A stretch of 64,000 bases of DNA from Candidatus Latescibacterota bacterium (GCA_965261395.1 OZ253462.1:1888001-1952000), one strand, 5' to 3'. Counted from the first letter of the stretch, positions 11,131 to 42,359 are shown. The notes: generated by a model from the letters alone, not told the origin. Translations and numbers: made by a program.

Positions 11131-12267
11131 AAATCACGGCCATCAAACTCTCGGTTTTCGAGCTTCCAGCCACCACTCCCCTCTTCGATCTAGAGCGTGT
11201 CCCCTACGGCCATCGCACCCGCTGGCAGGCCTGCGGCCACCGCCGCGCCGAGGCTCCCATACACGTGCTGCACGTGCTGACCGACGAAGGCTTGGAGGGC
11301 GTCTGTACGGTCGGCGACGCCCGCTACCAGACCATGGCGCCGCGAAGAACTGGAGGCCCTGCGAATCATGGCTGTCGGCCAAGACCCGCTCGACCGCGAG
11401 CGGCTCGACGACAAGCTGCGCTGGGCTACCCGCTCGCTCTTTTCGCGCCCAGGCTGGCACGGGGCTTTCGACAATTGCCTCTGGGACATCGCCGGGCAAG
11501 CCGCCGGCCTCCCGGTCTGCGCCCTAATCGGCCGGGCGCGTCCGCGCTGCCGGGCCTATTACAACTTCCCCTCCGGCAGTTTCGACGCCGCCTTGGAAGG
11601 GGCGGACCAAGCGCTCGCAGCGGGCTTTGTGGCTCTCAAAGACCACTGGTCCGGCCTCCCGGACACCAACATCGCGTGGTCGCGTGCCATCCGCGATCAC
11701 GTCGGTCCCGACATCGATCTGTTGCACGACGCGGCCGGCAGCCCCTACACTCTGCGCGAAGCCCTGCGCGTTGGCCGCGCGTTGGAAGAACTCGACTACG
11801 GCTGGTTCGAGGAAGCGATTTCCGACCGCGACCTCCAAGGCTTGCAAACGCTGTGCGCCGAACTCGATATCCCAGTCATGGCCCTTGAGACCCTGATGCA
11901 CGACTACGAGATCTGCACCGCTTGGGTCCGCGCCGAGGCCACGGATCTCGTCCGCGCCAATGCCCGCCACGGCACCACGGCCACCCTCAAACTCGCCGAT
12001 TTAGCCGCTGCTTACCGAACCACCATCGAATTCAACGGCCCGGGCGGCCTTTTTGGTCTAGTCCACGCCCACCTAGTCTGCGCCCTGCAAAACACCACAT
12101 ACTACGAGTATTTCCCCGGTGGTAGCCGCGACGAAATCGGCCGCGAGATCGGCCTGCTCAATCCCCCGCTGCCCGTCGATGGCCACATCACGCCACCGGC
12201 TGGCCCCGGCTGGGGAGCCGAGTGGGACCGGGCTTATTTCGCCAAGAAGCGCGTGGCCGAATGGTAA
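11127..12267 (+). CDS. Mandelate racemase/MLE family enzyme; frameshift at ~11336
   Basis: GTG start VKITAIKL; removing one G at ACCATGGCGC joins to ...[18 protein letters not shown] of ORF 11368-12267. Confidence 0.75.
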
Positions 12268-21715: not shown

Positions 21716-22006
21716 ATGATTATTCGCTCTGTCCACCACCGAGGATTGCGCCGGTTGATCGAAGACGACAATCCCCGGTTCCTGCAACACAACTTGGTTG
21801 ACCGAGTGCGCAAGATCTTGACGGCACTGATTTTGGCAGAGGAATTGGACAGATTCATTGCCGATGCGCCTCGTGGCTGGCGCGTCCATCGGCTCTCAGG
21901 TGACCGGCAGGACGAATGGAGCATTTCGGTATCCGGCAATTGGCGGATCACCTTTGCAGAAGAGGACGGCTATATCGACCGCTTGAACTTGGAGGACTAC
22001 CACTAA
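21716..22006 (+). CDS. higB: HigB (RelE/ParE family) toxin
   Basis: HRGLRRL, HRLSGDR, WSISVSGNWRITF, LEDYH. Confidence 0.9.
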   Translation: MIIRSVHHRGLRRLIEDDNPRFLQHNLVDRVRKILTALILAEELDRFIADAPRGWRVHRLSGDRQDEWSISVSGNWRITFAEEDGYIDRLNLEDYH

Positions 22007-22311
22007 TGGCTACCGACGGCATCAAAGTGAACATGACCCCTTCGCATCCGGGCGACTTCATTCGCACAGAAATCATCGAGGAGTTGGGCCTAAACGTGAC
22101 GAGAGCAGCCGAAATTCTAGGAGTTCGGCGGGCAACGCTTTCGGACTTGCTGAACGGCAACGCCGCGCTATCGCCGGAGATGGCACTGCGCATCGAAAAA
22201 GCATTCGGCGTGGGCATGGACATGTTGCTGCGGATGCAGGCTTGGTATGACGCCTCGCAGATGCGCGCCCGTGCAAATGAGATCAGCGTCCAGCGTTATG
22301 AGCCTGTCTGA
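22006..22311 (+). CDS. higA: HigA antitoxin
   Basis: HPGDFIR, HTH, LSPEMALRIEKAFG, LLRMQ; coupled to higB stop. Confidence 0.92.
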   Translation: MATDGIKVNMTPSHPGDFIRTEIIEELGLNVTRAAEILGVRRATLSDLLNGNAALSPEMALRIEKAFGVGMDMLLRMQAWYDASQMRARANEISVQRYEPV

Positions 22312-22356
22312 GCTAGGTAACTGACAACAAAATCTATACTGAAAAGGAGTAATCGG

Positions 22357-22866
22357 ATGCCGTATCGTAACAAAGTGTTCATCTCGTTCGATGGGGACAA
22401 TGATATTCATTATTACCGACTGATGTGTGCATGGAAACAGAATGATCGCACAGACTTCAACTTTTTCGACGCGCATGACATCAACACCGCAAGGGACACC
22501 AGCACCGAAGAAACAATCAAGAGGCGACTCAGTGAACGTCTTGCGAATGCGTATGTTGTAGTTTCCCTGATAGGTGAGCACACACGGTATCACTATAAAT
22601 TCGTCCGATGGGAACTAGAGCAGGCGATCACACGTAATTTGCCGATAGTTGGCGTCAACCTTAACGGACGGCGATCCCAAGACACTATGCTTTGTCCACC
22701 CATTATTCGTGATAAGTTGGCAATTCACATTAGTTTCAATGCAGCGATTCTCCAATACGCTCTCGAGGACTGGCCCACCAAACACACAAATTACAAAAGA
22801 AACAACAAAATAGGACCGTACTATTATTCGCAAGAAGTCTACACACGTCTGGGACTACCACCATGA
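22357..22866 (+). CDS. thsB: TIR-domain protein (ThsB/DUF1863-like)
   Basis: KVFISF, VSLIGEHT, FVRWELEQAI catalytic Glu, PIVGVNLNG; lower GC. Confidence 0.8.
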   Translation: MPYRNKVFISFDGDNDIHYYRLMCAWKQNDRTDFNFFDAHDINTARDTSTEETIKRRLSERLANAYVVVSLIGEHTRYHYKFVRWELEQAITRNLPIVGVNLNGRRSQDTMLCPPIIRDKLAIHISFNAAILQYALEDWPTKHTNYKRNNKIGPYYYSQEVYTRLGLPP

Positions 22867-23807
22867 ACCTTATTAAGAGATATGTAACTAAGGGCCACAT
22901 ATCCATAGCTCTATTCCGTCATCTCTCGCGTCTTGCCCTTATCAGATCTCTCCTTGAAGCGTTCGGAGTTTTGTGGCTCATTGTTGAGTCTTCATCATTT
23001 TTCTTTTTATCGTTTGGAGATCTTGTTAAGTCCTACTGGTGGTTATTCCTGCTTGGTGGCGCTGCCCTCGGCGTGTATCGCGCTCTGCCGAAATCCACAG
23101 CATCCTCACGCATTCAGGGCACAGACTCGTTCATTGAGCTGCGTATCACTGATATGTTCAGTGTGCCGGCAGCATTTATAATACCCTGTAATCGAACATT
23201 CGATACGAGTCTCGAGGATCGTATTATTTCCCCAAAAAGTACTCAAGGGCAATTTACACAGCTCTTCTTTGCTAACTCTCGGGATGAATTGGATAAAAAG
23301 ATATGTATGAGCATCGATAGTACCGAAGGGACTACGCTCGACAGAAACAACAAACCATATGGGAAGCAAATCGAATTCCCGATAGGCACTGTCGCGGAAG
23401 TCTCGTCCGGTGAAAAAATCGCTTATCTTGTCGCCATTAGCTCCCTCAACGAGCACAAGAAAGCAATCGCGTCGACAGAGGATATCCTTGATGCTCTACC
23501 CGCGATATGGGAATTTATCCGCACAAGGGGCGAGTTCGTACCCCTCTGCTGTCCAATCCTTGGTTCCAAGTTTAGTCGCGTAAAAGCGACCCGGGAAGAT
23601 TTAACTCGTGAAATCATTAAATCGTTCGTCTCCGCTTGTCGTGCAGGTCACTTCTGCGAGAAACTAACGATTGCAATCGCTCCATCAGACTTTATGACTG
23701 GCAAAATCAACCTTGAAACACTCCGGCGGTTTTTGGAGCATGAATGCTTGTATCCTGTAGCACTATCTTCAGATTTAGCTAGCGCCCCCACCGGAACTCC
23801 AGCATAG
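22863..23807 (+). CDS. thsA: Two-TM + Macro domain effector (Thoeris type II ThsA-like)
   Basis: Two N-terminal hydrophobic helices; IPCNRTFDT, IISPKSTQGQF, FPIGTVA, PILGS; overlaps the TIR gene by 4 nt. Confidence 0.72.
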   Translation: MNLIKRYVTKGHISIALFRHLSRLALIRSLLEAFGVLWLIVESSSFFFLSFGDLVKSYWWLFLLGGAALGVYRALPKSTASSRIQGTDSFIELRITDMFSVPAAFIIPCNRTFDTSLEDRIISPKSTQGQFTQLFFANSRDELDKKICMSIDSTEGTTLDRNNKPYGKQIEFPIGTVAEVSSGEKIAYLVAISSLNEHKKAIASTEDILDALPAIWEFIRTRGEFVPLCCPILGSKFSRVKATREDLTREIIKSFVSACRAGHFCEKLTIAIAPSDFMTGKINLETLRRFLEHECLYPVALSSDLASAPTGTPA

Positions 23808-23835: not shown

Positions 23836-24138
23836 ATGGAAAACACATACTTCGTCCCAGCCGACACCGAGCACGTCGCCCGAGAAAAAAACAAGGCCAA
23901 GGTGCTACGCCGCTCCCAGTGGTGGAAGCGCAAACGGGCCGCCGGCCAATGCCACTACTGCCAGCAGTCGTTTGCGCCCGAAGATCTGACCATGGATCAC
24001 GTGGTGCCACTCATCCGCGGCGGCCGCACCACCAAGTCCAACGTGGTGCCTTGCTGCAAGCACTGCAACAGCCAAAAGCAACACCTGCTTCCCGTCGAAT
24101 GGACGGCCTATTTAGAGCGGCTGCGCGGCGAAGGCTAG
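23836..24138 (+). CDS. HNH endonuclease
   Basis: CHYC, LTMDHVVP, NVVPCCKHCN. Confidence 0.9.
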   Translation: MENTYFVPADTEHVAREKNKAKVLRRSQWWKRKRAAGQCHYCQQSFAPEDLTMDHVVPLIRGGRTTKSNVVPCCKHCNSQKQHLLPVEWTAYLERLRGEG

Positions 24139-25076
24139 TGATAGTCCACAATGTCGGCTATAGCCGCGGCTACTTCCTCGGCCACTTCCGCCGGCACCCG
24201 CGGATTGAACGGGCCGCCCTCGCCGCCATCCACATCGCTGAACCCTCCCAAGTGCATGGCCTCAACCACAGCGGAGTAGTTATACATGCGGCCGTTGCGG
24301 AAGCGAATTTCCTCTAGGGCCGCGAGCTGGTTTTCGATCTGCTGCGACGTGGCAAAATCGCCTCGGCGCTGGGCGTTGTTGATCTCGTCTGAAGCGCGGG
24401 CGAAGGCCACATTGATCCCCGACGTATGCCCTTTAGTGCCGCGCTCAGCCGGCCCAGTCGAACGGTCCCCCACACCCCATATCACCAGCGCAGCTCCCTC
24501 CTGTACGTCGGCGACAATCGGCTCAACGTCCTCGACCGTGGTGCCGATCTTCAGCCCCACGAAGTGCTCTGATTCGTTCATCAGCCGCACGGCTATGTCA
24601 CGCTCGGCTTGGTTGCGCAGGTAGTAGAGCAACTTGGCCCCGCACGAACGCCCCAACCGCTCGGCAAAATCCACGTAGTACGCAAAAATGCCCTCTGGAT
24701 TGGCCACGCCAGTAAGCGGCATAACGAGATAGACACCCGGGGGATATTCGAGCGCGGCCTCCCGCTCGATCAACCGCTCGGCATCCCCAACCGGATTGGG
24801 GGCAATCCCAGACATCAGCACCCCGCGCCCCCCCATCTGCTCGCCGGTAAAGCCCAACAACCGCACTTGCTCGTCCGCGCTAATGTGGTGGATCAAGCTA
24901 GTCCCGGCGATGCCAATCACCCGGGGCCGGTCGCCGTCCAAGTGATTGTTCTCCATTAAGTAGTTGATGTTCTTGGCGTGGGCCTCATAGTCGATTTGCC
25001 CGCCGCGAAAGGGGACCACCGGGATGGAGGTAACCGAGTTTAGCGCGTCGAGTAGGTCTTCTCTTTGCAATGGCAT
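24135..25076 (-). CDS. Divergent DHDPS/NAL family lyase
   Basis: IPVVPF..GQIDY, LLYY, VGLKIG Schiff-base Lys, GHTSG. Confidence 0.7.
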   Translation of the reverse strand: MPLQREDLLDALNSVTSIPVVPFRGGQIDYEAHAKNINYLMENNHLDGDRPRVIGIAGTSLIHHISADEQVRLLGFTGEQMGGRGVLMSGIAPNPVGDAERLIEREAALEYPPGVYLVMPLTGVANPEGIFAYYVDFAERLGRSCGAKLLYYLRNQAERDIAVRLMNESEHFVGLKIGTTVEDVEPIVADVQEGAALVIWGVGDRSTGPAERGTKGHTSGINVAFARASDEINNAQRRGDFATSQQIENQLAALEEIRFRNGRMYNYSAVVEAMHLGGFSDVDGGEGGPFNPRVPAEVAEEVAAAIADIVDYH

Positions 25077-25109
25077 GTTTAACCTCAACTGTGTTAGGTG
25101 GCGATGAAT

Positions 25110-26186
25110 TCAACGCTCGGGTGCGAAGCGGCGCATGTCGCGCCCTGGGGTTCCCTCGGCGATCCAGTGAGCGACGATTTGGCCGGTAATCGGGCCTAAT
25201 AAGACGCCGTTTTTGTAGTGCCCAGAGGCCACGAAAACCCTCGGCGCATCCGTCAGCGGGCCGATGAGCGGACGCCCGCCTCGGGGCTTGGGCCGCAGAC
25301 CAGCCTGCTGGCGCGACAGCGGCAAGCACCTCCCCAGCGCGGAGCGTACCTGCGCGGCGAACTCCGCCGCGGCCGCGCAGGTCGTTTCCAGCCGAAAGCC
25401 GACCTCTTCCAACGTCGATCCCGCGATTGTTTCGCCGCCGTCTGGAATGAGGTAGCGTCCGTTTACCCTCACTAGGTGGCGTAGCGGGGCACCGGCAAAA
25501 CGCGCTTGTTGGCCCCGCACCGGACGCAACGCGACTCGGGCACCGAGCTGCGCGGCCAAACCGGTGGTCCACGCCCCAGCCGCCAAGACCGCAAAGTCGG
25601 CGCGATGGGTTCCGCTAGTGGTGGCGACCTCGACGGTCTCGCCCTCTTGGGCAATGCGCCAGACACGCTCACCCCAAGCGGCAGACGCGCCCCGCTGGGC
25701 GGCAGACGCCCAAAGCGCCGCGCCCAACTTGAGGGGATCCACCCGGTGATCGTCGGCAAAATACAGACCCTCGCAGCCGCCGTCCAACGCTGGCTCCGCA
25801 CCGCGCAAGGCCCGCTCGTCGAGCCGCTCGACCCGACCGCCGCGCGTGCGGTTGAAGCGCCAGACCTCCTCTAGCTGGGATGCGTCGGCAAAAAGCTCGA
25901 TGCCGCCGAGGGGACGCCAGCCCACGTCTGCGTCTATATCTTCTTCTAGATCGCAAGCCAGCCGGGCGTGCAGGGCGTGGCCATCGCGGAAAAGCTGAGC
26001 GTAGGAATTGTCGCCGCCGTTGCAGTGGGTGAGGACGCCCAAAGAGGCCCGGCTCGTGGATGAACCTGCGGCGATCCCCTCGTCGAGCAGGACGACCTTA
26101 GCACCTTGCCGCGCGAGGAAGTAGGCCGTCGAGCGGCCAATGATACCGGCCCCGACGACCAACACGCGCGCGCCCGCAAGGGCCAT
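25110..26186 (-). CDS. Glycine oxidase/D-amino acid oxidase-like FAD oxidoreductase
   Basis: GAGIIG, PVRGQ, GLRP, GHYKNGVLL. Confidence 0.85.
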   Translation of the reverse strand: MALAGARVLVVGAGIIGRSTAYFLARQGAKVVLLDEGIAAGSSTSRASLGVLTHCNGGDNSYAQLFRDGHALHARLACDLEEDIDADVGWRPLGGIELFADASQLEEVWRFNRTRGGRVERLDERALRGAEPALDGGCEGLYFADDHRVDPLKLGAALWASAAQRGASAAWGERVWRIAQEGETVEVATTSGTHRADFAVLAAGAWTTGLAAQLGARVALRPVRGQQARFAGAPLRHLVRVNGRYLIPDGGETIAGSTLEEVGFRLETTCAAAAEFAAQVRSALGRCLPLSRQQAGLRPKPRGGRPLIGPLTDAPRVFVASGHYKNGVLLGPITGQIVAHWIAEGTPGRDMRRFAPER

Positions 26187-27356
26187 CTAACGACCGACGA
26201 TCGGCGGCAGGTTGGTCGTCGGGCAGGCGCGCGGGCCGCTCACCGGATAGCCCATATCCGCGAGGACGCAGTTGATTTGAGCCTCTAGCTTGAGCAGGTA
26301 CTCCTGTTCGGCCGCGCTGCTCGACGCGCGCGCTGGGCCTACGTCAAAGCCGCGGGCCGCCACGCCGGTCTTGAAGCCCTCTGGGAAGTTGACGCCGAGG
26401 AGCATCAAGTTAATGAGGTCGAGGATGCGGTATTGCAGTTCGCGGGCCCGCTTGATGTCGCCGCTTTTGGCCTTTTCATAAAGCTCGACAATCACCTCTG
26501 GGACGATGCCCGAGGTGGCGATGGTGCCTCCGCTAGCGCCCATGAGCACTGAGGGGAACACGATTTCCTCGCAACCGGTCATTACCACGTAGTCGGGGCG
26601 TTGTTGGCGCAGGCGGTGCATAGTGTTGAGCAGCCGTGGCAGGTCGCGGCTGGAGTCCTTGGTGCCGAAGATCCGCTCGTAGGGCAAGAGCCGCTCCATC
26701 AAATCTATCGACAGCTCTTGGGTAAATTGCGGAATATTGTACAGCAGGATGTCCAGCGGCGATTCTTCGGCAATTTCGGCGAAGTACTCGAAGAGGCTCT
26801 CAGTGGAAATCTCATAGTAATAGGGGGGCATTAGCGCAATGGCATCCACGCCGAGCGAGGCGTAGTATTCAGCCATCTTGAGCACGTCGCGCAAATTGGC
26901 CTCGCTGGCTCCGGCCAAGACGGGTATGCGCCCCGCGTTGACCTCGCAGACCAGCCGCACCACGTCTTGGCGCTCCTCCCGCGACAGGCGCGCGAACTCG
27001 CCGGTGCTGCCGTTGGGGTACAGCCCGTGGAGCCCAGCCTCGATCAGCCAGTTGATGTAGCGCTCCATCTCGGCGTGGTTGATCCCGTTCTGGCGGTCGA
27101 AAAGGATGAGATTGGGGCAGAAGATGCCAGCAAATGCCTTGCGACCGTCGGCGCGAGCAACCGCTGGTGCCGATATTGGCGTTGGGGGGGTTTGGCTGCT
27201 GGCTTCTCGACGCACGACCTCAACACCTTGAGCGCGCAAAAAGTCCTGCGCCGAGGGCGTCAGCTTGGCCCCCGGGCCGAGCTCGACCTGCCGTTCGCCA
27301 GCCAGGCGACCCTCCAAGGTCTGAGCGGTAATTACTGCATCGTCAATCCGAATCAT
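26187..27356 (-). CDS. DHDPS/NAL family aldolase with N-terminal extension (candidate BMC signature enzyme)
   Basis: NGSTGE, PPYY, LLYNIP, GTKDSS; ~70 aa N-terminal addition. Confidence 0.85.
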   Translation of the reverse strand: MIRIDDAVITAQTLEGRLAGERQVELGPGAKLTPSAQDFLRAQGVEVVRREASSQTPPTPISAPAVARADGRKAFAGIFCPNLILFDRQNGINHAEMERYINWLIEAGLHGLYPNGSTGEFARLSREERQDVVRLVCEVNAGRIPVLAGASEANLRDVLKMAEYYASLGVDAIALMPPYYYEISTESLFEYFAEIAEESPLDILLYNIPQFTQELSIDLMERLLPYERIFGTKDSSRDLPRLLNTMHRLRQQRPDYVVMTGCEEIVFPSVLMGASGGTIATSGIVPEVIVELYEKAKSGDIKRARELQYRILDLINLMLLGVNFPEGFKTGVAARGFDVGPARASSSAAEQEYLLKLEAQINCVLADMGYPVSGPRACPTTNLPPIVGR

Positions 27357-27370
27357 TTTTCGCGTCCTCG

Positions 27371-28525
27371 CTAAACGTGCGGCAGGCGGCCTTCGAGGCC
27401 GCTGTAGGGCTGCGGAATGGCGTAGGCCGAGACCAGTTCTCCGTGTGCGACGGCCTCCTGCCGGCCCGCCTCTATGGCGACCTGCACGGCACCGACATCG
27501 CCGCGGACGACCGCGGCCGTCAAGTAGTACCCCACCTTATAGGCCCCCTCGTATTCGACGGAAGCGGCTTTGAGCATCCGATCGACGGCCCGCACCAAGG
27601 CCACGGTGCTGCGCGTCTCAATCAGCCCCATAGCCTGCCGCGCACCCGGCCCAAGGCCCTCGGCCGCAGTGGCAAAGCGGGCGACTAGCGCGGAATCGGG
27701 CCGCGAGACTACAGCCGAGGCGTCGAGCTGGCCCAAGGCCGTAGCGGCCTCAGCACCGGCGCGCACGGCGGCCTGCACGTCGTCGAGTTGGCCGGTGGCC
27801 AGCGCGGCAATCCGCCCACCGCTGCCGATGCTCAAGCGCTCGATTTGGACATCCGCGGCCTTGAGCATGGCGTCGGCGCTGCCCACGACCGCGGCGTAAC
27901 CAATGGTCTCTATGAGGCCCAAGGCACCAGTGGCGCGCGGTGTGACCGGTGGCGCGGGCGGCAGCAGAGGGCCTAGTCCTTCGCTGGGCTGGGGCAAAAC
28001 AAGGGTCGCGTACACGGTGCCAAGCCGCTCGGCTGCTTGCCGGCCAGCTTCTAGCGCTGTCTGCACGGCCGCCACATCGCCAAAGACCGGTGCGTGACAC
28101 AGGGCACCACCGATGAAGGCCCAACCCCCTAGCTCCACTTGGGCGGCCTTGAGCATGGCGTCGGTGCCAGCCACTAGCGGCGTCAGGCCCTGCGTCTCCA
28201 ACAGGCCAAGCGCTCGCGGCTGTACCGGTTCGGCACCGAGGCCGGTTGCGTGGGGCATGGCGTCCATGGCGCGCGCATCCGGCCTCGGCACCACTCGCGC
28301 GCCAATCAATTCGCCGGTGCGGTTCGCCTCGACCTCGCCGACGCGAATGGCCGCCTCCACGTCAGCCACTTGGCCGGCAATTACTACGGTGAGCCAACCC
28401 GAGCCAATGCCGTGCCGACCACAGAGGCGTACCTCAGCGGCCTTGAGCATGGCGTCGGTGGAAGCCATTAGCGACGCCATGCCGCGCGTCTCCAGCATGC
28501 CGATCGCTCCGCTAGACACCGCCAC
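27371..28525 (-). CDS. BMC shell protein with four tandem BMC domains
   Basis: Four domain starts: AIGMLETRG, ALGLLETQG, ALGLIETIG, AMGLIETRS, each with D.MLKAA and ending (P/S)xP; start may be GTG at 28519. Confidence 0.88.
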   Translation of the reverse strand: MAVSSGAIGMLETRGMASLMASTDAMLKAAEVRLCGRHGIGSGWLTVVIAGQVADVEAAIRVGEVEANRTGELIGARVVPRPDARAMDAMPHATGLGAEPVQPRALGLLETQGLTPLVAGTDAMLKAAQVELGGWAFIGGALCHAPVFGDVAAVQTALEAGRQAAERLGTVYATLVLPQPSEGLGPLLPPAPPVTPRATGALGLIETIGYAAVVGSADAMLKAADVQIERLSIGSGGRIAALATGQLDDVQAAVRAGAEAATALGQLDASAVVSRPDSALVARFATAAEGLGPGARQAMGLIETRSTVALVRAVDRMLKAASVEYEGAYKVGYYLTAAVVRGDVGAVQVAIEAGRQEAVAHGELVSAYAIPQPYSGLEGRLPHV

Positions 28526-29096
28526 CTCCCATCGGCACGGCGTATGCGGCCAAAACCTCGGGTCGCGGCTGCGGAATCAGTGCCGTGCCCAGCAAGTGCT
28601 CGCAGCCCGCGAGCAGCTTTTGCGCGACGGCTATGGCTTCGGTTACGGCCCCTACGTCCCCCAAGACCAGCGAACACACCACGCGGTCGTGGACCGTCAG
28701 CACGTTGATTACTTCGACGGCAGCCGTCTTGACCATCTGATCGTTGGTGTGAATGTGAGCTCCGTAGCCGCGCGTCTCAACCAACCCCAAGGCACCGGCG
28801 GGAAAATCGCTGCGGGTGCTGATTGGAAAATTGACGAAATGGAAGCAGGCAGCGGCGGGCTGGTTTAGAGGGACGGCCACCACGTGTTCTACCACGCCGC
28901 GGGCCGCTTCTTCGCCGCTTTGCAGCGCGGCGGCCACATCGCTGATCGACCCGGTAAAAAAGGCCGTGGTATAACCGCCAATTGACGACCAGCCTGCGAG
29001 CTGCACGTCCGCAGCCTTGCAGGCCGCATCTGCACCCACAATGGCGGCGGCCACGCCCTGCACCTCGATCATGCCGACTGCTGGGGACCCGGCCAT
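28512..29096 (-). CDS. Tandem two-domain BMC shell protein (divergent)
   Basis: AVGMIEVQG...DAACKAA and ALGLVETRG...DQMVKTA...GDVGAV. Confidence 0.85.
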   Translation of the reverse strand: MAGSPAVGMIEVQGVAAAIVGADAACKAADVQLAGWSSIGGYTTAFFTGSISDVAAALQSGEEAARGVVEHVVAVPLNQPAAACFHFVNFPISTRSDFPAGALGLVETRGYGAHIHTNDQMVKTAAVEVINVLTVHDRVVCSLVLGDVGAVTEAIAVAQKLLAGCEHLLGTALIPQPRPEVLAAYAVPMGGGGV

Positions 29097-29099
29097 AGC

Positions 29100-29549
29100 T
29101 CAGTCTGCCAGCCGGTGAATTACTAGCTCGGTGATCTGCTCAACTAAGGCTTCCGGGTCGGTGGCTTGGCCCTGCTCGATTTGTTGCAGAAGCGTCTTGT
29201 AGCGGTTGCAGCCCTCGCAGCTCGCCTCGGGGTCGCCCGCCTTCTTGCGCTGGTGGACGGCGCAATCGCCGCAGCGCGACGGCTCGACGTACCCCGAGCC
29301 AAACTCCTCGTGCTGGCAGCCGCAGGCGCGGTCGGGATGCTCGCACCGGCCCGCGTCCGCAACGCCGTCGGCGGCTGCCGCAACGGCCGCGCCGCGACTT
29401 AGCTGCAACCGGTGCTGGCGGATGTAATCCCAAGCCGTCGGCGTCAAGATGGCGCTGGGGGCCACCTTGAGTGCCCGCTCGCCCTTGTGCTCGCGCCCGA
29501 GCAAATCGCCGGTGACGACTGGGGCGTCGATGTGCAAAGCCTCGGCCAC
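29100..29549 (-). CDS. BMC-associated Cys-rich hypothetical protein with C-terminal encapsulation-peptide-like helix
   Basis: AILTPTAWDYIR N-domain; 7 Cys including CGDC and CEGC; DPEALVEQITELVIHRL. Confidence 0.75.
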   Translation of the reverse strand: MAEALHIDAPVVTGDLLGREHKGERALKVAPSAILTPTAWDYIRQHRLQLSRGAAVAAAADGVADAGRCEHPDRACGCQHEEFGSGYVEPSRCGDCAVHQRKKAGDPEASCEGCNRYKTLLQQIEQGQATDPEALVEQITELVIHRLAD

Positions 29550-29553
29550 TTAG

Positions 29554-29817
29554 CTAACCAATGTGGTCTGTCAGCCCCTCAGTCGGGCGGGGAATCACGT
29601 GGACGCTGCGCAGCTCGCCGATGCGCTGGGCGGCTTGCGCTCCTGCATCTACCGCCGCTTTGACAGCCGCTACGTCGCCTTCGACTAGAACGGTAATTAG
29701 GCCACTGCCCACGCGCTTTTGGCCCGCATAGCTCACGTCGGCGGTTTTCAACATGGCGTCGAGGGCTTCGACGACGCAGACCAAACCACGGGTCTCAACC
29801 ATACCCAATGCTTTCAT
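29554..29817 (-). CDS. BMC-H hexameric shell protein (EutM/PduA-like)
   Basis: [32 protein letters not shown]. Confidence 0.95.
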
Positions 29818-29833
29818 TATTTGTCTCCTCTAC

Positions 29834-30394
29834 CTACAAGTACAACGCGACGAGATCGTCGTGGGGGCGGGGAATCACGTGCTGCGACACGAGCTCGCCC
29901 ACGCGCTCGGCCGCCTCGGCACCAACGCTGACCGAAGCCTGCACCGAGCCGACGTCGCCACTGACCATGACGGTAATGTACCCGCCGCCGATGTCCTGGA
30001 GCTTGACGACCTCCACATCGGCGGCCTTGCTCATGGCGTCGGCTGCTTCGATTACGCCGATGGCCCCCTTCGTCTCAATGAGGCCCAAGGCGCGGACGCG
30101 ACCATCGCTGTCGTCGCTGTCGCTGCGCTCGGGCACGACGGCCGTCAACTCGCTGTGCGGGCGGGGAATCACGTGCACCGAATGCACCTCCCCAACCTTG
30201 GCCGCCGCGGCCGAGCCGGCATCCACAGCCGACTTGACGGCCGCCACATCGCCCGAGCAAAACACTGTCACCAAGCCGGAGCCGACCCTGTCCCAGCCCA
30301 AAAGCTGTACGCTGGCGGCCTTGGCCATGGCGTCGCCGGCCTCGACGATCCCGACCAGCCCCACCGTTTCTACCATGCCTATTGCATCCGACAT
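29834..30394 (-). CDS. Tandem two-domain BMC shell protein (two PduA-like domains)
   Basis: AIGMVETVG...VIPRP and ALGLIETKG...VIPRP. Confidence 0.92.
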   Translation of the reverse strand: MSDAIGMVETVGLVGIVEAGDAMAKAASVQLLGWDRVGSGLVTVFCSGDVAAVKSAVDAGSAAAAKVGEVHSVHVIPRPHSELTAVVPERSDSDDSDGRVRALGLIETKGAIGVIEAADAMSKAADVEVVKLQDIGGGYITVMVSGDVGSVQASVSVGAEAAERVGELVSQHVIPRPHDDLVALYL

Positions 30395-30431
30395 CCCTTA
30401 CCTCCTGAAGTAATTGTGCGGATTTTTGCGT

Positions 30432-31112
30432 TCAACGCTCCAAATATACCTTGCGGGCATGTACCAAATCAATCGCATTGCCCTCGTCTGTGTCGATGTG
30501 AACCTCTAGGCGCTCGCGCTCGCTGACTCGACAGATCAGCCCTTCCAGCACCCCACCCTGATCGCCTTCTACTACCAGCCGCAGCAAGTCCCCCGGGCCG
30601 ACCCCGTAGTACGCAGCCTCGGCCGGGTTTAGATGAACGTGGCGGGCGGCCCGGATCACTCCGTGCGCAAGCTCCAGCCCTCCGGCCGGCCCCACCAAGT
30701 AGCAGCCCGGCGTCTCCTCGATGTTGCCACTGAGCCGCACCGGCGCGTCAATGCCCAAAAAGCGGGCGTCCGTAAAGGCCAGCTCCACTTGGTTGTAATC
30801 GCGCAATGGGCCGAGGATGCGGACATTGGGAATCACCTGCTTGCGCGGGCCGAAAACCGACACCGTCTGCTCGGCGGCGAAAGCACCCCCCTGGTACAAG
30901 GTCTTCTGCACGGTCAGCTCGGCACCCGCGCCGAAGAGCGCGTCCATTGCCTCTTGGTTGAGGTGGACGTGGCGGGCGGACATATTGACGACCAGCCTCG
31001 GGGCTGGAGGTGCCTGCTCTAGCTGAGCGTCGGGCAGGTGATCGTACACCACCCGGCGCACCAGCGCCTCAATCTGCTTGCGGTCCAATCCAGCCGCTGG
31101 TGCAACGTCCAT
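30432..31112 (-). CDS. pduL: Phosphate acyltransferase PduL with N-terminal encapsulation peptide
   Basis: SARHVHL, VRILGP, RHVHL, VHIDTDEGNA; IEALVRRVV helix. Confidence 0.93.
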   Translation of the reverse strand: MDVAPAAGLDRKQIEALVRRVVYDHLPDAQLEQAPPAPRLVVNMSARHVHLNQEAMDALFGAGAELTVQKTLYQGGAFAAEQTVSVFGPRKQVIPNVRILGPLRDYNQVELAFTDARFLGIDAPVRLSGNIEETPGCYLVGPAGGLELAHGVIRAARHVHLNPAEAAYYGVGPGDLLRLVVEGDQGGVLEGLICRVSERERLEVHIDTDEGNAIDLVHARKVYLER

Positions 31113-31115
31113 CGC

Positions 31116-31430
31116 CTATCCTTCGCGGCTCAGTTGCCGACAGTCGAAGTCTTTGCCCATAGCCTGTAGCGAATCGACGATCCCGACGATTACCGCGTCG
31201 GCTGGCACATCGCCCAAGTCCGGGGCGATCCGCGACGAGCTGCCCTGCACCAAAATCACCAACTCGCCCTTGCCCGCTTGCACCGCATCGATGCAGACCA
31301 TATCCCGCCCCGTCAGCACCAGACCATGCTCGCGCACCGACGCGATTTCAACGACTAAGAGCTTCTTGCCGTTGAGGCTCGGAACCTTGGCCGTGGAAAC
31401 CAAATGCCCTTTGACTTGGCCTAAGAGCAT
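31116..31430 (-). CDS. BMC-P vertex pentamer EutN/CcmL
   Basis: G.LVST.K...L.G.KLL, DAVQAGKGE.V, GSSSR, DAVIVGIVD. Confidence 0.93.
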   Translation of the reverse strand: MLLGQVKGHLVSTAKVPSLNGKKLLVVEIASVREHGLVLTGRDMVCIDAVQAGKGELVILVQGSSSRIAPDLGDVPADAVIVGIVDSLQAMGKDFDCRQLSREG

Positions 31431-32842
31431 CAGGTGATGCGGAAGTAGTCGACGAGGGCACAGCGGCGCTGGCGGGTAAAAGTCCGCGGTGAAGTCAGGC
31501 CCTCGCCCGTAGGCCCAGCGATGGAGTACGTCCCAAAGCCCTCGCCGCCCAAGCCAACCCCAGCGTAGGAGGGGCCGTTCTTGACGAAAATAGTGGTATC
31601 TACGGCGCGGGCCATGTTGTGCATGTTTTCGATGTTGCGCGAATGGATCACGGCCGTGTGCCCATAGCCGTGCTCGGAGATGACGGCCTCGCGGATGGCT
31701 TGGTCGATGTTGGGAACCCGCACGATCGGCAGAAAGGGCATCATCTGCTCCTCGCGCACAAAAATGTGGTTGGCATCGGTCTCGCCAATGAGCATGCGCA
31801 GCGACGAGTCGAGCCGGAGGCCGATGCGCTCGCCCAGCACGGCAGCGTCGCGCCCCACCAACTCGCGGTTGGCCGCGAGATGCCCGTCTGGCCCTTCGAC
31901 AAAGGCCACCTGCGCGAGGGCCTCAATCTGCCGTGCGTCGAGCTCATATGCATTGTATTGGACCATCAGCCGCTTGAGCTCGTCGGCAATGGAGGCGACG
32001 GCAAAGACCTGCTTCTCGCCGATGCAGAGAATGTTGTTATCGAAGCCCCCCCCGTCGATGATGTCGCGCGCGGCCTTGGCTAAATCGGCGGTTTCATCGA
32101 CGACCGCGGGCGGATTACCTGGTCCGGCGACGATGGCCTTTTTGGGGCTACCCAGCGCGGCCTTGGCCACGCCCGGCCCGCCTGTGACCAGCAGCAGGCG
32201 GACGCCTGGGTGGTTGAACAATTCGTTGGCCGTCTCAATGGTCGGCGTTTCGACCGCGGTCACCAAGTTGGCCGGCCCGCCGGCTGCGACGATGGCTTGA
32301 TTGATCAAGTCCACCGCGAACATGGAGACCTTGCGGCCCGCCGGATGTACGTTGAAGACGACCGAGTTACCCGCGGCGATAATGCAAATGGCGTTGTTGA
32401 CCATCGTCGGCACGGGATGCGTCGATGGAGTGACCGCGCCGATGACCCCGTAGGGGGCCATTTCGACTACGGTCAGCCCGTGATCGCCGGTCCACGAAGT
32501 GGCCTCTAGGTCTTCGACGCCGGGCGTGGTGTCGGCCGCGACTTGGTGCTTGAGGATCTTGTCTTCCAACCGCCCCATGCCCGTCTCGGCCAAGGCCCGC
32601 CGCGAAAACTCCTCGGCGTGGACGTGCACCGTCTGCCGGAGGGCCTCGACGATCTTTTTGCGCTCCTCCAGCGACAGGGCCACCAACTGCTGCTGGGCGC
32701 GGGTCGCGCCTTGGACGGCCGCGTCGATCGTCGCGAAGACGCCGGTGTTCCCGCTCTCGCTGCCGTTCCCGCCGCTGACGACGCGCTGCACCACTTCTTC
32801 GACTATCTTGCGTACGTGTTCTTCGCTGACGTTTTGAGGCAC
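31430..32842 (-). CDS. CoA-acylating aldehyde dehydrogenase (EutE/PduP-like) with encapsulation peptide
   Basis: VRKIVEEVV helix, TGDHGLT, AGPGNPP, FDNNILCIGEK, TGEGLTS. Confidence 0.93.
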   Translation of the reverse strand: MPQNVSEEHVRKIVEEVVQRVVSGGNGSESGNTGVFATIDAAVQGATRAQQQLVALSLEERKKIVEALRQTVHVHAEEFSRRALAETGMGRLEDKILKHQVAADTTPGVEDLEATSWTGDHGLTVVEMAPYGVIGAVTPSTHPVPTMVNNAICIIAAGNSVVFNVHPAGRKVSMFAVDLINQAIVAAGGPANLVTAVETPTIETANELFNHPGVRLLLVTGGPGVAKAALGSPKKAIVAGPGNPPAVVDETADLAKAARDIIDGGGFDNNILCIGEKQVFAVASIADELKRLMVQYNAYELDARQIEALAQVAFVEGPDGHLAANRELVGRDAAVLGERIGLRLDSSLRMLIGETDANHIFVREEQMMPFLPIVRVPNIDQAIREAVISEHGYGHTAVIHSRNIENMHNMARAVDTTIFVKNGPSYAGVGLGGEGFGTYSIAGPTGEGLTSPRTFTRQRRCALVDYFRIT

Positions 32843-32979
32843 GCTCTTTTCCTCGGGTTGTGTTTAATATTTAGCATGGGGAAAATAGGCGGCCCCACCC
32901 CAAGCGTCAAGGTTATTTGACGGGCTGCCAGCCCTGCCTTAAGGTTTGTGCAAGTGCTGGAAAAACAAAGGAGAAAGAC

Positions 32980-33783
32980 ATGCGCATCATCCGCTTTATC
33001 GACGCTGAAGACGCCGTCCGTTGGGGCCTCGAAGCCGAGGAGGGCCAAGCCTCCGTCCTCACCGGCGATCTATTCGCAGAACTAGTGCCCACGGACGAAC
33101 AGGTAGCCGTCAAAAGGCGGCTCGCCCCGCTCGCCCCGACCAACATTTTCTGCATTGGGCTAAACTATCGAGAACACGCGGCCGAATCCGGCCTCGAGCC
33201 GCCCGAGCAGCCCGTAGTCTTTGCCAAGCCCACGAGCGCGGTCTGCGGCCCGGGCGACCCGATCCTGCTGCCAGCCTGCTGTCGCCGCGGCCCGGAAGTT
33301 GACTACGAGTGCGAGCTCGCAGTGGTGATCGGCAAAGCCGCCCGCAACGTCTCCCGCGCCGACGCCCTCAGCCACGTGCTCGGATACACGTGCGCCAACG
33401 ACGTCTCGGCCCGCAAGTGGCAGCTCAACGGCGGCGGCGGCCAGTGGATCCGCGGCAAGGGCTTTGACACCTTCTGCCCTTTGGGGCCGGTGCTGGTCAC
33501 TGCCGACGAAATCCCCGACCCGCAAACCCTCGGCATCCGCACGATCCTCAACGGCGCGACCATGCAGGACCACACCACCGGCGACATGATCTTCCCGGTC
33601 GCCGAACTGATCGAATTTCTCAGCGAAGATACGACCTTGCTGCCGGGCACGGTCATTCTCACCGGTACCCCGCAGGGCGTGGGCTTTGCGCGCAAGCCGC
33701 CCGTGTGGCTCGCAGCCGGCGACGAGGTAATCGTGGAAATAGACCAGATCGGCCGGCTGCAAAATCCAGTGGAGGCAGCCTAG
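32980..33783 (+). CDS. Fumarylacetoacetate hydrolase family protein
   Basis: CIGLNY, DYECEL, NDVSAR, GKGFDTFCP, ILTGTP. Confidence 0.92.
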   Translation: MRIIRFIDAEDAVRWGLEAEEGQASVLTGDLFAELVPTDEQVAVKRRLAPLAPTNIFCIGLNYREHAAESGLEPPEQPVVFAKPTSAVCGPGDPILLPACCRRGPEVDYECELAVVIGKAARNVSRADALSHVLGYTCANDVSARKWQLNGGGGQWIRGKGFDTFCPLGPVLVTADEIPDPQTLGIRTILNGATMQDHTTGDMIFPVAELIEFLSEDTTLLPGTVILTGTPQGVGFARKPPVWLAAGDEVIVEIDQIGRLQNPVEAA

Positions 33784-33786
33784 GGT

Positions 33787-34107
33787 TCACGCCTCCTTGA
33801 ACATCCCGAAGGCAAAGGCTTCGGGTAACTCCTCGAAGATGATCTGCCCCTCGTCGTCGGTCTCCAACAATTGGGCCATGTAGTCGTACCACTTTTCTAG
33901 GATGGGAACTTGGCGGCTCTTGAGCCAGTCTTCCTCAGTGGGGGCGACCGCGTGGATGACGAGGTGTTCGCCCAAGCGATAGATGGCCATGCTGACCTCG
34001 TTGTCGGTCATGCTGTCGGCGATTTCGGGCCACAGGTCGTCGTGGGCCTGTTTGTACTCGGCGTACGCGTCGGGGCGCAGCCGCATGCCTAAGCCAATCG
34101 AATACAT
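33787..34107 (-). CDS. L-rhamnose mutarotase family
   Basis: EYKQAHDDLWPEI, KWYDYMA. Confidence 0.8.
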   Translation of the reverse strand: MYSIGLGMRLRPDAYAEYKQAHDDLWPEIADSMTDNEVSMAIYRLGEHLVIHAVAPTEEDWLKSRQVPILEKWYDYMAQLLETDDEGQIIFEELPEAFAFGMFKEA

Positions 34108-34681
34108 AATGGTCTCCTTGGTCGTTAGAGGATTCGCGCCGTCCAACGCGGACGACGATGTCGTGGTGATTGATAAATATGCGGATTAATTAAGAGATAT
34201 TCAGAAAATGACGTAAAGTGCCTTTTTTTCTATTCTTAGGTATTTTTTCCTTGACAATATATCACCTTGAAAGTGAAACTAAAAGGCAATCAAGAACCGT
34301 GCAAAGCAAATTGCACATCACCATAGAGAGGAGGGCCTCAAGTAATGATTCTCTTCGCACATCAATTCTCGTGTAGTACTCTTAGGAGCCAGCTCCCCGA
34401 CGGGGGCGGCCATAAGGTCCCAAATATGCGGGCTAAAAACAGCATCCGAGCGTTGCGCGTTCGTCCCAATCCCTAGAATACACGCACGACTCTTCAGGTT
34501 GCGTGCATCGGCTGGCTAAAACGCCCAGCCGAATCGGGAATTCACCTCGCATTCGCAATGTAATCGTCTCAGGCGATTGACCGCGCGTGCAAGGGCTTTC
34601 CCACGGGGTTTTCGGGACAGCGCTTTCGATAAGGAGGGCACTTTTGCGTCCCGGAAACCGGCGATACATCGAACTCGATAT

Positions 34682-40784: not shown

Positions 40785-42359
40785 ATGGAGAGGAACCAGA
40801 CCAGTACGCATCGGGCTTGGCCCTTCCAAGAGGCGGCACAGATCGTCAAGCAGCGCCGGCCCAGCGGGGACCGCCCGGTACTATTCGAGACCGGCTTTGG
40901 CCCCAGCGGCTTCCCCCATCTAGGGCACTTTTCAGAAGGCGTCCGCACCTCTTGGGTGCGCAACGCCTGTGAATACCTCTACGGGACAAAAACCCGCCTA
41001 CTCTGCTTCAGCGACGACATGGATGGCCTGCGCAAGGTGCCTAGCAACTTGCCGCAGCCCGAGATGCTCGCCGCCCACCTCGGCAAACCCCTACACGCCG
41101 TCCCAGATCCCTTTGGTTGCTGTGCGAGTTTCAGCGACCATATGAACGCCAAGCTGTGCGAGTTTTTCGACGCCTCCGGCTTTGACTACGAGTTTCAAAG
41201 CTCGCGCGAAGCCTACGTGCGCGGCGACTTCGACGAAGGGCTTTCGATTCTCCTAGAAAAAGCCGAAGAAGTTCGCCAAATCATCGTGCCGACGCTGCGG
41301 GAACAAAATCGCCAGCACTGGTCGCCCTTCTTTCCGATTTGTACCAACTGTGGCTCGATCATGGCCACGCGCGTCACCGCCTACCATCCCAGCCGGGGCA
41401 GCGTGAGCTTTACTTGCGACCTCGATACCGGCCCCTACACCGGGTGTGGCGAGAGCGGCGAGCAGTCGGTGCTCGACGGCAGTGCCAAGGTGGGCTGGAA
41501 AGTCGATTGGGCCCTGCGCTGGTACACCTACGAGGTCGATTATGAAATGTACGGCAAAGACCTCGTCGACTCGGTTCGCCAGTCCTCCCGCATCGTGCGC
41601 CTGATGGGCAAGCAGCAGCCGGTCGGCTTGTGCTACGAGTTTTTTCTCGACGAGGAAGGGCGGGGATTGGCGAGCAGCGCCGGCCGCATGGGGGTGACAG
41701 TAGATGCGTGGAAGGCGTACGCGCCGATAGAATCCCTGCTCTTTTTCTTGTTCCAGAATCCCAAGCGGGCCAAGCGGCTGCACTGGGATATCGTCCCCAA
41801 GTGCGTTGATGACTATCTCGATGCGCTGCGGCGCTATCCCGAAATGGCAACGGAGAAGCAGCCCGAGCAGGCCGTGTGGCATATCGGCGACTGCGGCAAG
41901 GACGTACCCGAGTACGCATCCCGGATCAACTTCTCGACAGTCAACAATCTGATCGCAGCCTTGGGAGTGGATTCGGTCGAGGTGTTGGGCGACTATCTGG
42001 CGCGCTACGATGCGCAGGCTTCTACTTATCCCCAGGTAACGCAGGCGCTGGTGGAGAAGGGGCTTAATTACTACCGAGACGTGGTGCTGCCGAACAAGCA
42101 GTTTCGTCCGCCCACGGACGAGGAGCGGGCGCTGCTAGGACAGTTGGCCGAGCGGCTGAACGCGACCAACGGGGCCACCGAGGAAGAGTTGCAGGCCATT
42201 CCGTTCGACTTGGCCCGCGAGGCCGGAGTATCCCCCAAGTCGCTGTTTCGGATGTTTTACGAGGTGGTGCTGGGGCAGGAGCAAGGGCCGCGGTTTGGGT
42301 CGCTTGTGCAGCTAGTGGGGCGGGAACAGGTGGTGCAGATGGTGCGGGAGAAAGCGTAG
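40785..42359 (+). CDS. lysS: Class I lysyl-tRNA synthetase
   Basis: FETGFGPSG.PH, DDMDGLRKVP, WKVDWALRW, YEMYGKD, QGPRFG. Confidence 0.9.
   Translation: MERNQTSTHRAWPFQEAAQIVKQRRPSGDRPVLFETGFGPSGFPHLGHFSEGVRTSWVRNACEYLYGTKTRLLCFSDDMDGLRKVPSNLPQPEMLAAHLGKPLHAVPDPFGCCASFSDHMNAKLCEFFDASGFDYEFQSSREAYVRGDFDEGLSILLEKAEEVRQIIVPTLREQNRQHWSPFFPICTNCGSIMATRVTAYHPSRGSVSFTCDLDTGPYTGCGESGEQSVLDGSAKVGWKVDWALRWYTYEVDYEMYGKDLVDSVRQSSRIVRLMGKQQPVGLCYEFFLDEEGRGLASSAGRMGVTVDAWKAYAPIESLLFFLFQNPKRAKRLHWDIVPKCVDDYLDALRRYPEMATEKQPEQAVWHIGDCGKDVPEYASRINFSTVNNLIAALGVDSVEVLGDYLARYDAQASTYPQVTQALVEKGLNYYRDVVLPNKQFRPPTDEERALLGQLAERLNATNGATEEELQAIPFDLAREAGVSPKSLFRMFYEVVLGQEQGPRFGSLVQLVGREQVVQMVREKA

Follow-up and report, generated by a model that had tools for sequence, protein, structure and literature searches.

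Metabolosomes whose core is an aldehyde dehydrogenase (AldDh) include a type of unknown function, MUF2, which Sutter et al. (2021, Nat Commun 12:3809, PMC8217296) catalogued as having an AldDh but no obvious signature enzyme. The fucose/rhamnose bacterial microcompartment (BMC) of Planctomycetes and Verrucomicrobia (PVM) uses a class II aldolase of family PF00596, with lactaldehyde as intermediate (Axen et al. 2014, PMC4207490; PMC8217296). Pyruvate and L-lactaldehyde are also the products of the aldolase for 2-keto-3-deoxy-L-fuconate (L-KDF), with which the non-phosphorylating L-fucose route ends (PMC11199699). With regard to shell attachment, Salmonella EutQ binds the shell through helices H1/H2 (residues 9-41) and cargo encapsulation peptides through H3/H4 (Sci Adv 2025, PMC12487888). 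Here we describe a metabolosome locus of a Candidatus Latescibacterota bacterium (GCA_965261395.1), located in a stretch of 64,000 nucleotides (OZ253462.1, bases 1888001-1952000; hereafter the window) of a single 6.55-Mb contig with a marker-gene completeness of 95%. Its operon encodes DHDPS1, a class I aldolase-like protein of the dihydrodipicolinate synthase/N-acetylneuraminate lyase (DHDPS/NAL) family. The explanation that we favour, and to which we give an even chance, is that the locus belongs to an MUF2-type, PVM-like metabolosome fed by two aldolases, a class II enzyme and the shell-linked DHDPS1, with a core that would oxidise a hydroxy-aldehyde.

Genes were called from an open reading frame (ORF) listing together with Pfam and NCBIfam scans. 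Eleven minus-strand genes form an operon spanning window positions 24135-32842, read from 32842 down to 24135, with intergenic gaps of -14 to about 40 nucleotides (Table 1). As described in an earlier note on this DNA, an acylating AldDh, a PduL-type phosphotransacylase (PTAC), a pentamer protein and further shell proteins are all encoded here, tightly packed on one strand with a DHDPS/NAL aldolase, an FAD oxidase and a second DHDPS-like gene (DHDPS2). The AldDh and PduL core with its shell genes confirms that the locus is a metabolosome locus. Both core enzymes begin with features that, judged by eye, resemble encapsulation peptides: an amphipathic helix followed by a Gly/Ser linker in AldDh, and an extension of about 40 residues with an amphipathic helix in PduL. 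Also in agreement with the note, the ORFs scanned in 17418-42359 did not yield a diol dehydratase, an ethanolamine lyase, a glycyl radical enzyme, a class II aldolase, an iron-type alcohol dehydrogenase (Fe-ADH) or an acetate kinase.

The type of the locus was assigned through its BMC-T shell protein. In the BMC-Ts tree of the catalogue, CME20_01425, CME28_01115, CME13_09850 and others are labelled bmcType=MUF2, in clade Ts_hazel (PMC8217296). CME20_01425, which is 76% identical to the window protein, is the BMC-T orthologue of related locus L026, CME28_01115 is that of L029 (exact look-up), and the BMC-T cluster of L060 contains CME13_09850. Because these orthologues are the very proteins that carry the label, we assign the locus to MUF2; by this shell-protein relationship it is a further member of a catalogued type, and the type itself is not new. 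The suggestion that this is an uncharacterised BMC type thus holds for its function but not for the type as such. In the literature searched, the name MUF2 was used by the catalogue and its preprint only, and no publication joining microcompartment with dihydrodipicolinate terms was found.

When species-representative genomes were scanned with DHDPS1, 78 loci were obtained with 65-95% identity across the whole 389 residues, nearly all from metagenome-assembled genomes (MAGs) labelled Candidatus Latescibacterota and some labelled Gemmatimonadota. Architectures were defined by tblastn with the window proteins and by ORF clustering, using the 75 loci with a usable DHDPS1. Fifty of these belong to architecture A, in which AldDh lies at most 10 kb from DHDPS1; most retain the gene order of the window, and the more distant members have extra BMC-P genes and LytB contiguous with the locus. 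In architecture B (about 18 loci), the BMC-T, a four-domain BMC protein and DHDPS1 alone remain together, and DHDPS1 is kept at about 70% identity in the architecture-B genomes (n = 8). The four-domain BMC gene is directly upstream of DHDPS1 in 74 of the 75 loci, the lone exception being cut by a contig end, and synteny in relatives thus bears out the linkage of DHDPS1 with shell genes. The four-domain protein is encoded by a single ORF of 382-391 residues in relatives, including L045. A hexamer cannot be completed by four BMC domains; three chains might instead come together as a pair of linked pseudohexamers. We found nothing on a fusion of this kind in the part of the catalogue's text that was consulted (PMC8217296).

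DHDPS1 is built of a conserved N-terminal domain of 50 residues (N-domain), a variable Pro/Ala/Ser linker, the PF00701 body and a C-terminal tail, also conserved, of about 20 residues. When aligned with E. coli NanA, DapA and YagE (alignment A1), it displays Y206 and K233 as invariant columns, in keeping with the intact catalytic Tyr and Lys noticed earlier, and it has the GSTGE motif. Where DapA carries Arg138, which we take to be the arginine that binds aspartate semialdehyde (E. coli residue numbering), DHDPS1 has a Phe. Its score against the dapA model TIGR00674 is 154 bits (cut-off 206), and a stronger DapA candidate with 234 bits is encoded elsewhere in the genome. Judged by these residues and scores, DHDPS1 is a Schiff-base enzyme and not a true DapA. 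It also stays below the N-acetylneuraminate lyase models (PRK04147, 164.9 vs 281; TIGR00683, 136.9 vs 382) and under every NCBIfam cut-off, including those for dapA, nanA, 2-keto-3-deoxygluconate (KDG) aldolase and KdgD. A subfamily assignment by solved structures was tried and set aside, as the scores were too alike to discriminate. As a separate observation, the C-terminal tail (window about 26187-26250, minus strand) is Pro-rich, contains one Cys, runs past the point where the E. coli family members end and is kept in all four orthologues aligned.

The conventional aldolase of the genome lies in a satellite locus. The genome has 11 BMC-domain and 4 BMC-P matches. A BMC-P triplet lies outside the window, at 5.005 Mb and immediately after LytB; because LytB precedes the triplet here and LytB, BMC-P genes, FAH and AldDh are contiguous in distant relatives, we assign the triplet to the same system. 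One satellite BMC-H, at 6.519 Mb, adjoins a GFO/IDH/MocA oxidoreductase. The other, at 4.243 Mb, is followed on the same strand by a membrane protein and then by a class II aldolase, the sole protein of the 6.55-Mb genome to match PF00596, which lies about 0.9 kb from the BMC-H. This aldolase extends 55 residues past the Pfam domain and ends in an amphipathic helix that by eye is like those of AldDh and PduL. Orthologues with at least 54% identity were found in 36 of the 40 genomes carrying DHDPS1 loci. Of the 30 class II aldolase loci returned, two were inspected manually. L097 retains the aldolase with its C-terminal helix, together with the membrane protein and the BMC-H. In G016, an architecture-B relative, the order is PduL, unknown, BMC-H, BMC-P, AldDh, BMC-P, BMC-P, class II aldolase, acetate kinase, which by gene content and order is a PVM-like layout. 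The encapsulation-peptide-like tail recurs in both relatives (81% and 56% identity). In the genome studied here, acetate kinase has a single copy at 3.08 Mb, outside any BMC locus. We further observed that, in the surrounding region (L111, genome 3076000-3094000; 5369-9484), it stands immediately after a ManD-like sugar-acid dehydratase, that an HpcH/HpaI-type aldolase and a DUF6772 protein are encoded close by, and that defence-like genes (AAA_15/AAA_21, GmrSD, DUF499) lie downstream.

The earlier note had taken DHDPS1 for the apparent signature enzyme. Because the single class II aldolase adjoins a BMC-H gene, carries an encapsulation-peptide-like tail, recurs in most relatives and takes its particular place in G016, a satellite locus appears to supply a conventional signature enzyme, an outcome that the note itself had named as speaking against its reading, and that claim is not supported; the DHDPS1 of the main operon is probably a second aldehyde source, not the sole one. 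We see only a small chance that this is instead a new BMC type in which the DHDPS-family aldolase alone acts as signature enzyme, the class II aldolase belonging to ordinary cytosolic metabolism. Such a scheme agrees with DHDPS1 being the only aldehyde-forming candidate in the main operon, always beside shell genes, and with the lack of a PF02952 or PF06134 match in the genome to feed the class II aldolase, but it has to contend with a class II aldolase that adjoins BMC-H, that has a tail recurring in the two relatives read and that in G016 lies within a run of AldDh, BMC-P and acetate kinase genes, as well as with a type already catalogued as MUF2.

The N-domain provides a second link between DHDPS1 and the shell. 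Residues 2-49 match the N-terminus of a 149-residue protein encoded among the shell genes (BLASTP E 3e-9), and the N-domain is conserved in the orthologues, where the length of the linker varies. Among proteins of 213-681 residues, it was found on DHDPS orthologues alone (51 of 51 hits), in a word-based search that could miss distant fusions. Because of its constant adjacency to a shell gene and the N-domain shared with the 149-residue protein, DHDPS1 reads as shell-linked cargo, and is very probably tied to the shell; the proposed connection of the aldolase with the compartment is thereby upheld. The same evidence makes it unlikely that we are dealing with a plain PVM-like compartment in which the class II aldolase is the sole aldehyde source and DHDPS1, the FAD oxidase (DAO) and DHDPS2 are cytosolic neighbours: DHDPS1 stays with two particular shell genes even as a separate three-gene locus, its N-domain is homologous to that of a protein encoded among shell genes, and this domain is conserved while the linker drifts. 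A plain compartment would be in line with the main locus of G016, which has the full PVM-like set without DHDPS1, and with the termini of DHDPS1, in which no classical short amphipathic encapsulation peptide was found by eye.

The 149-residue protein itself, a candidate shell-cargo linker with 124 unnamed homologues, begins with the N-domain, continues through a variable linker into a block that has six conserved Cys, and closes with an amphipathic helix at the C-terminus (alignment A5). AlphaFold2 modelled the N-domain as beta-alpha-beta-alpha-beta (pLDDT 80-91 for residues 1-50), the middle of the protein being poorly modelled. Pfam searches with the N-domains at E <= 10 returned nothing useful, and Foldseek with the model of the 149-residue protein found no match in the PDB at E <= 0.001. 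An ESM Atlas search with the 149-residue protein gave weak leads, the best of them (0.84) to unnamed clusters, and a cluster of EutQ fragments at 0.79, because of which the N-domain was compared with EutQ. We regard its likeness to EutQ, as seen in the profile alignment given below, as a lead only. A complex prediction of the DHDPS1 N-domain (A3) with three copies of the neighbouring BMC-T (A4) scored 0.00 in both runs, which were made without controls and speak neither for binding nor against it.

With respect to substrate, the genomic setting points, indirectly, to sugar acids. The genome contains 83 enolase-superfamily (MR_MLE_C) matches in its 6.55 Mb and 14 DHDPS-family matches; three of the MR_MLE_C matches fall in the window (Table 1). 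In architecture B, genes for a galactonate-dehydratase equivalog (399 vs 311 bits), a second MR_MLE protein, a Zn-dehydrogenase and a short-chain dehydrogenase/reductase (SDR) lie within 8 kb downstream of DHDPS1. The FAH hydrolase and RhaM-like genes flanking the operon, although both under their NCBIfam cut-offs, the ManD-like dehydratase beside acetate kinase and the published non-phosphorylating L-fucose route (PMC11199699) are clues of the same indirect kind. A plausible substrate of DHDPS1 is a 2-keto-3-deoxy sugar acid, giving pyruvate and lactaldehyde.

According to the two-aldolase model, the system would be spread over at least four loci, with the window holding the main one. The shell would be made from one BMC-H, two tandem BMC-T, the four-domain fusion and one BMC-P encoded in the window, and from the BMC-P triplet and two BMC-H encoded elsewhere. 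In the core, AldDh would turn a hydroxy-aldehyde, most likely L-lactaldehyde, into an acyl-CoA, which PduL would convert to an acyl-phosphate; ATP would in turn be generated from the acyl-phosphate by the single acetate kinase, whose gene lies elsewhere. One source of the aldehyde would be the class II aldolase, of the FucA/RhaD-like family, brought in by its C-terminal encapsulation-peptide-like helix in the PVM manner. The other would be DHDPS1, cleaving a non-phosphorylated 2-keto-3-deoxy sugar acid to pyruvate and aldehyde and presumably held at the shell via the 50-residue N-domain that it has in common with the 149-residue linker-like protein.

Several observations weigh against this model. 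DHDPS1 has no clear subfamily, structures of DapA, KDG aldolase, YagE and NAL all scoring 96-130 bits, and the sugar-acid genes of architecture B are a weak context, interleaved as they are with a housekeeping DapF equivalog; PhyH proteins also lie among them. The class II aldolase is under every NCBIfam cut-off (best 139 bits vs 250); in two of the 40 genomes only a 34% match was found, and in two others none (fragmentary MAGs). A phosphorylated route would be left without a recognised isomerase, because searches of the genome for the fucose isomerase C-domain (PF02952) and for RhaA (PF06134) gave no match, other isomerase families not having been searched. No NAD+-recycling alcohol dehydrogenase was detected in any BMC locus examined; six Fe-ADH matches lie elsewhere in the genome. 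As for EutQ, the N-domain profile aligns weakly to residues 3-44 of the E. coli protein (hhalign E 0.011, probability 3.7%), and BLASTP of the N-domain against EutQ finds nothing. Finally, the encapsulation peptides were judged by eye only.

The remaining two operon genes raise the possibility of an amino- or imino-acid route. Bacterial hydroxyproline catabolism proceeds by a DAO-type oxidation followed by a DHDPS-family deaminase/aldolase step. By analogy, DAO could oxidise a D-amino or imino acid, and a DHDPS-family deaminase/aldolase could yield alpha-ketoglutarate semialdehyde or glyoxylate for AldDh. DAO is closest to glycine oxidases (ThiO, 174 bits, under the cut-off of 250.8; PDB glycine oxidases, 97-107 bits) and abuts DHDPS1 without a gap, with an aldehyde dehydrogenase in the same operon, and Supplementary Data 6 of the catalogue ties a DAO model to another uncharacterised type, MIC6 (PMC8217296). 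DHDPS2 keeps the Tyr and Lys columns in A1 at 18% identity. The in-locus orthologues in other genomes are 38-92% (DAO) and 61-95% (DHDPS-like) identical to the window proteins. However, none of the eight architecture-B genomes searched, all of which keep DHDPS1, had an orthologue of DAO (only paralogues of 32-33%) or any match to DHDPS2, indicating that DHDPS1 is independent of DAO. By this distribution, DAO and DHDPS2 are an accessory module in part of the lineage, and the idea that they are core parts is not sustained. Because these orthologues were not found in those eight genomes and the 95%-complete genome has no Pro_racemase (PF05544) match, an obligatory hydroxyproline-type pathway from DAO to DHDPS is unlikely; nor is an amino-acid transporter or an epimerase a conserved part of the locus, and we judge the amino-acid route as a whole to be very improbable.

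Table 1. Features of the window, with positions counted from its first nucleotide. The first eleven rows form the operon, in the direction of reading; bits are profile scores.
Feature	Position	Strand	Family evidence
Acylating AldDh, 470 aa	31430-32842	-	PF00171; NCBIfam PRK15398, 655 bits vs cut-off 403
BMC-P pentamer (vertex) protein, 104 aa	31116-31430	-	PF03319, 83.8 bits
PduL-type PTAC, 226 aa	30432-31112	-	PF06130, 219 bits, residues 42-215; NF011652, 221.7 bits vs 209
Tandem-domain BMC shell protein, 186 aa	29834-30394	-	PF00936, two stretches, 175.9 bits
BMC-H hexamer protein, 87 aa	29554-29817	-	PF00936, 94.2 bits
149-aa protein, candidate shell-cargo linker	29100-29549	-	no Pfam or NCBIfam match
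Tandem-domain BMC-T, 194 aa, Ts_hazel orthologue	28512-29096	-	PF00936, two stretches
Four-domain BMC fusion, single ORF, 384 aa	27371-28525	-	PF00936, four stretches, 258.9 bits
DHDPS1, DHDPS/NAL-family class I aldolase-like, 389 aa	26187-27356	-	PF00701, 195 bits, residues 75-361
DAO-family FAD oxidoreductase, 358 aa	25110-26186	-	PF01266, 191 bits
Divergent DHDPS-like protein (DHDPS2), 317 aa	24135-25088	-	PF00701, 42.9 bits
FAH-family hydrolase	32917-33783	+	PF01557, 257.6 bits
RhaM-like mutarotase-family protein	33787-34146	-	PF05336, 53.7 bits; TIGR02625, 42.7 bits vs cut-off 99.6
Small HNH-domain protein, 100 aa	23836-24138	+	PF14279, PF01844
Low-GC segment with HTH, ThsB-like and ThsA-like genes	21916-23807	+	TIR (ThsB-like), Macro domain (ThsA-like)
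M28 peptidase/DUF4910-acetyltransferase fusion, 881 aa	35173-37818	+	PF02522, 147.9 bits
Class I lysyl-tRNA synthetase	40785-42359	+	PF01921, 370 bits
Enolase-superfamily match	about 6354-7001		MR_MLE_C
Enolase-superfamily match	about 11596-12234		MR_MLE_C
Enolase-superfamily match	about 46037-46693		MR_MLE_C

Upstream of the operon, the FAH hydrolase and the rhamnose mutarotase-like protein that had been reported as adjacent are both encoded, but FAH diverges from AldDh and is not co-oriented with it, and FAH intervenes between the operon and the RhaM-like gene, which converges with FAH. The best NCBIfam match of FAH is 2,4-didehydro-3-deoxy-L-rhamnonate hydrolase (224.8 bits, under the cut-off of 500). 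In the ORF clustering of related loci, the FAH cluster is present in 34 sources including the window; the RhaM-like gene adjoins only in closer relatives (19 loci). At the other end, the HNH gene and the final gene of the operon are convergent; the HNH cluster spans 48 sources including the window and has no obvious microcompartment link. Between this conserved gene and a Lon-domain gene lies a segment of low GC content (0.49 vs about 0.63 around) which, besides an HTH protein, encodes ThsB-like and ThsA-like proteins, a Thoeris-like defence pair, of which neither member turned up in the 77 related loci tabulated. Further along, an M28 peptidase/DUF4910 region is fused to an aminoglycoside 3-N-acetyltransferase-like domain in a protein that the closest relatives retain at 76-79% identity, and the lysyl-tRNA synthetase is of class I, the rarer form in bacteria.

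MUF2 is among the metabolosome types for which the 2021 catalogue named no aldehyde-forming enzyme. The present data turn an entry of unknown function into a testable hypothesis, built on a class II aldolase with an encapsulation-peptide-like tail and a class I aldolase that has a conserved N-terminal module and is inseparable from two shell genes. If it is true, a class I aldolase and a domain-type targeting module would join the known ways of loading microcompartments, and microcompartments would be linked to a sugar-acid metabolism that is greatly expanded in this genome, given its enolase-superfamily matches. Engineered compartments could likewise make use of the four-domain shell fusion and of the N-domain as building parts. 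A wider proposal, tentative and in our estimate somewhat short of an even chance, combines all of these elements: MUF2 would be the first metabolosome to encapsulate a non-phosphorylative sugar-acid route, in which a DHDPS-family 2-keto-3-deoxy-sugar-acid aldolase is tethered to a four-domain BMC protein and a special BMC-T by a domain like the N-terminus of EutQ; with the class II aldolase beside it, two sugar routes would converge on one aldehyde-oxidising core, and the Cys-rich 149-residue protein would be a new shell-cargo linker.

How does the system compare with those described? The L-KDF aldolase presumably belongs to the DHDPS/NAL family. It is described as cleaving a 2-keto-3-deoxy sugar acid via a Lys Schiff base, and DHDPS1 keeps the Lys as well as the Tyr; the known enzyme is cytosolic and without an N-terminal domain such as that of DHDPS1. 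The resemblance to EutQ lies in the weak alignment of the profile shared by DHDPS1 and the 149-residue protein. Unlike in EutQ, the domain here comes without a cupin domain and is fused straight to an enzyme and to a Cys-rich protein.

The genome encodes all of the PVM-like components, i.e. class II aldolase, AldDh, PduL-type PTAC, acetate kinase and a BMC-P triplet, and in relative G016 class II aldolase, AldDh, PduL, acetate kinase and BMC-P genes stand in one run. The system differs from PVM in that the aldolase and the BMC-P triplet are here in satellite loci and not in the main locus; in that the ORFs scanned in the window locus and satellites L001, L002 and L112 yielded no DeoR regulator or Ldh-like lactaldehyde reductase, the whole genome not having been searched; in phylum, the loci being from Latescibacterota- or Gemmatimonadota-labelled MAGs; and in the added DHDPS1, four-domain BMC fusion, Ts_hazel BMC-T and 149-residue protein. 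The catalogue likewise files MUF2 apart from PVM. With respect to MUF2 as catalogued, the differences concern what is recorded: the catalogue gives no function, its custom hidden Markov model table (Supplementary Data 6) is without a DHDPS model (PMC8217296), and those parts of its text and supplements that were consulted, locus diagrams aside, say nothing of a satellite with a class II aldolase, of a shared N-terminal domain or of a four-domain fusion. The likeness extends to an AldDh and PTAC core whose main locus lacks a recognised signature enzyme, to the origin of the catalogued proteins from 'Gemmatimonadetes'-labelled MAGs, and to the main and satellite forms that the catalogue lists for MUF2, which fit architectures A and B.

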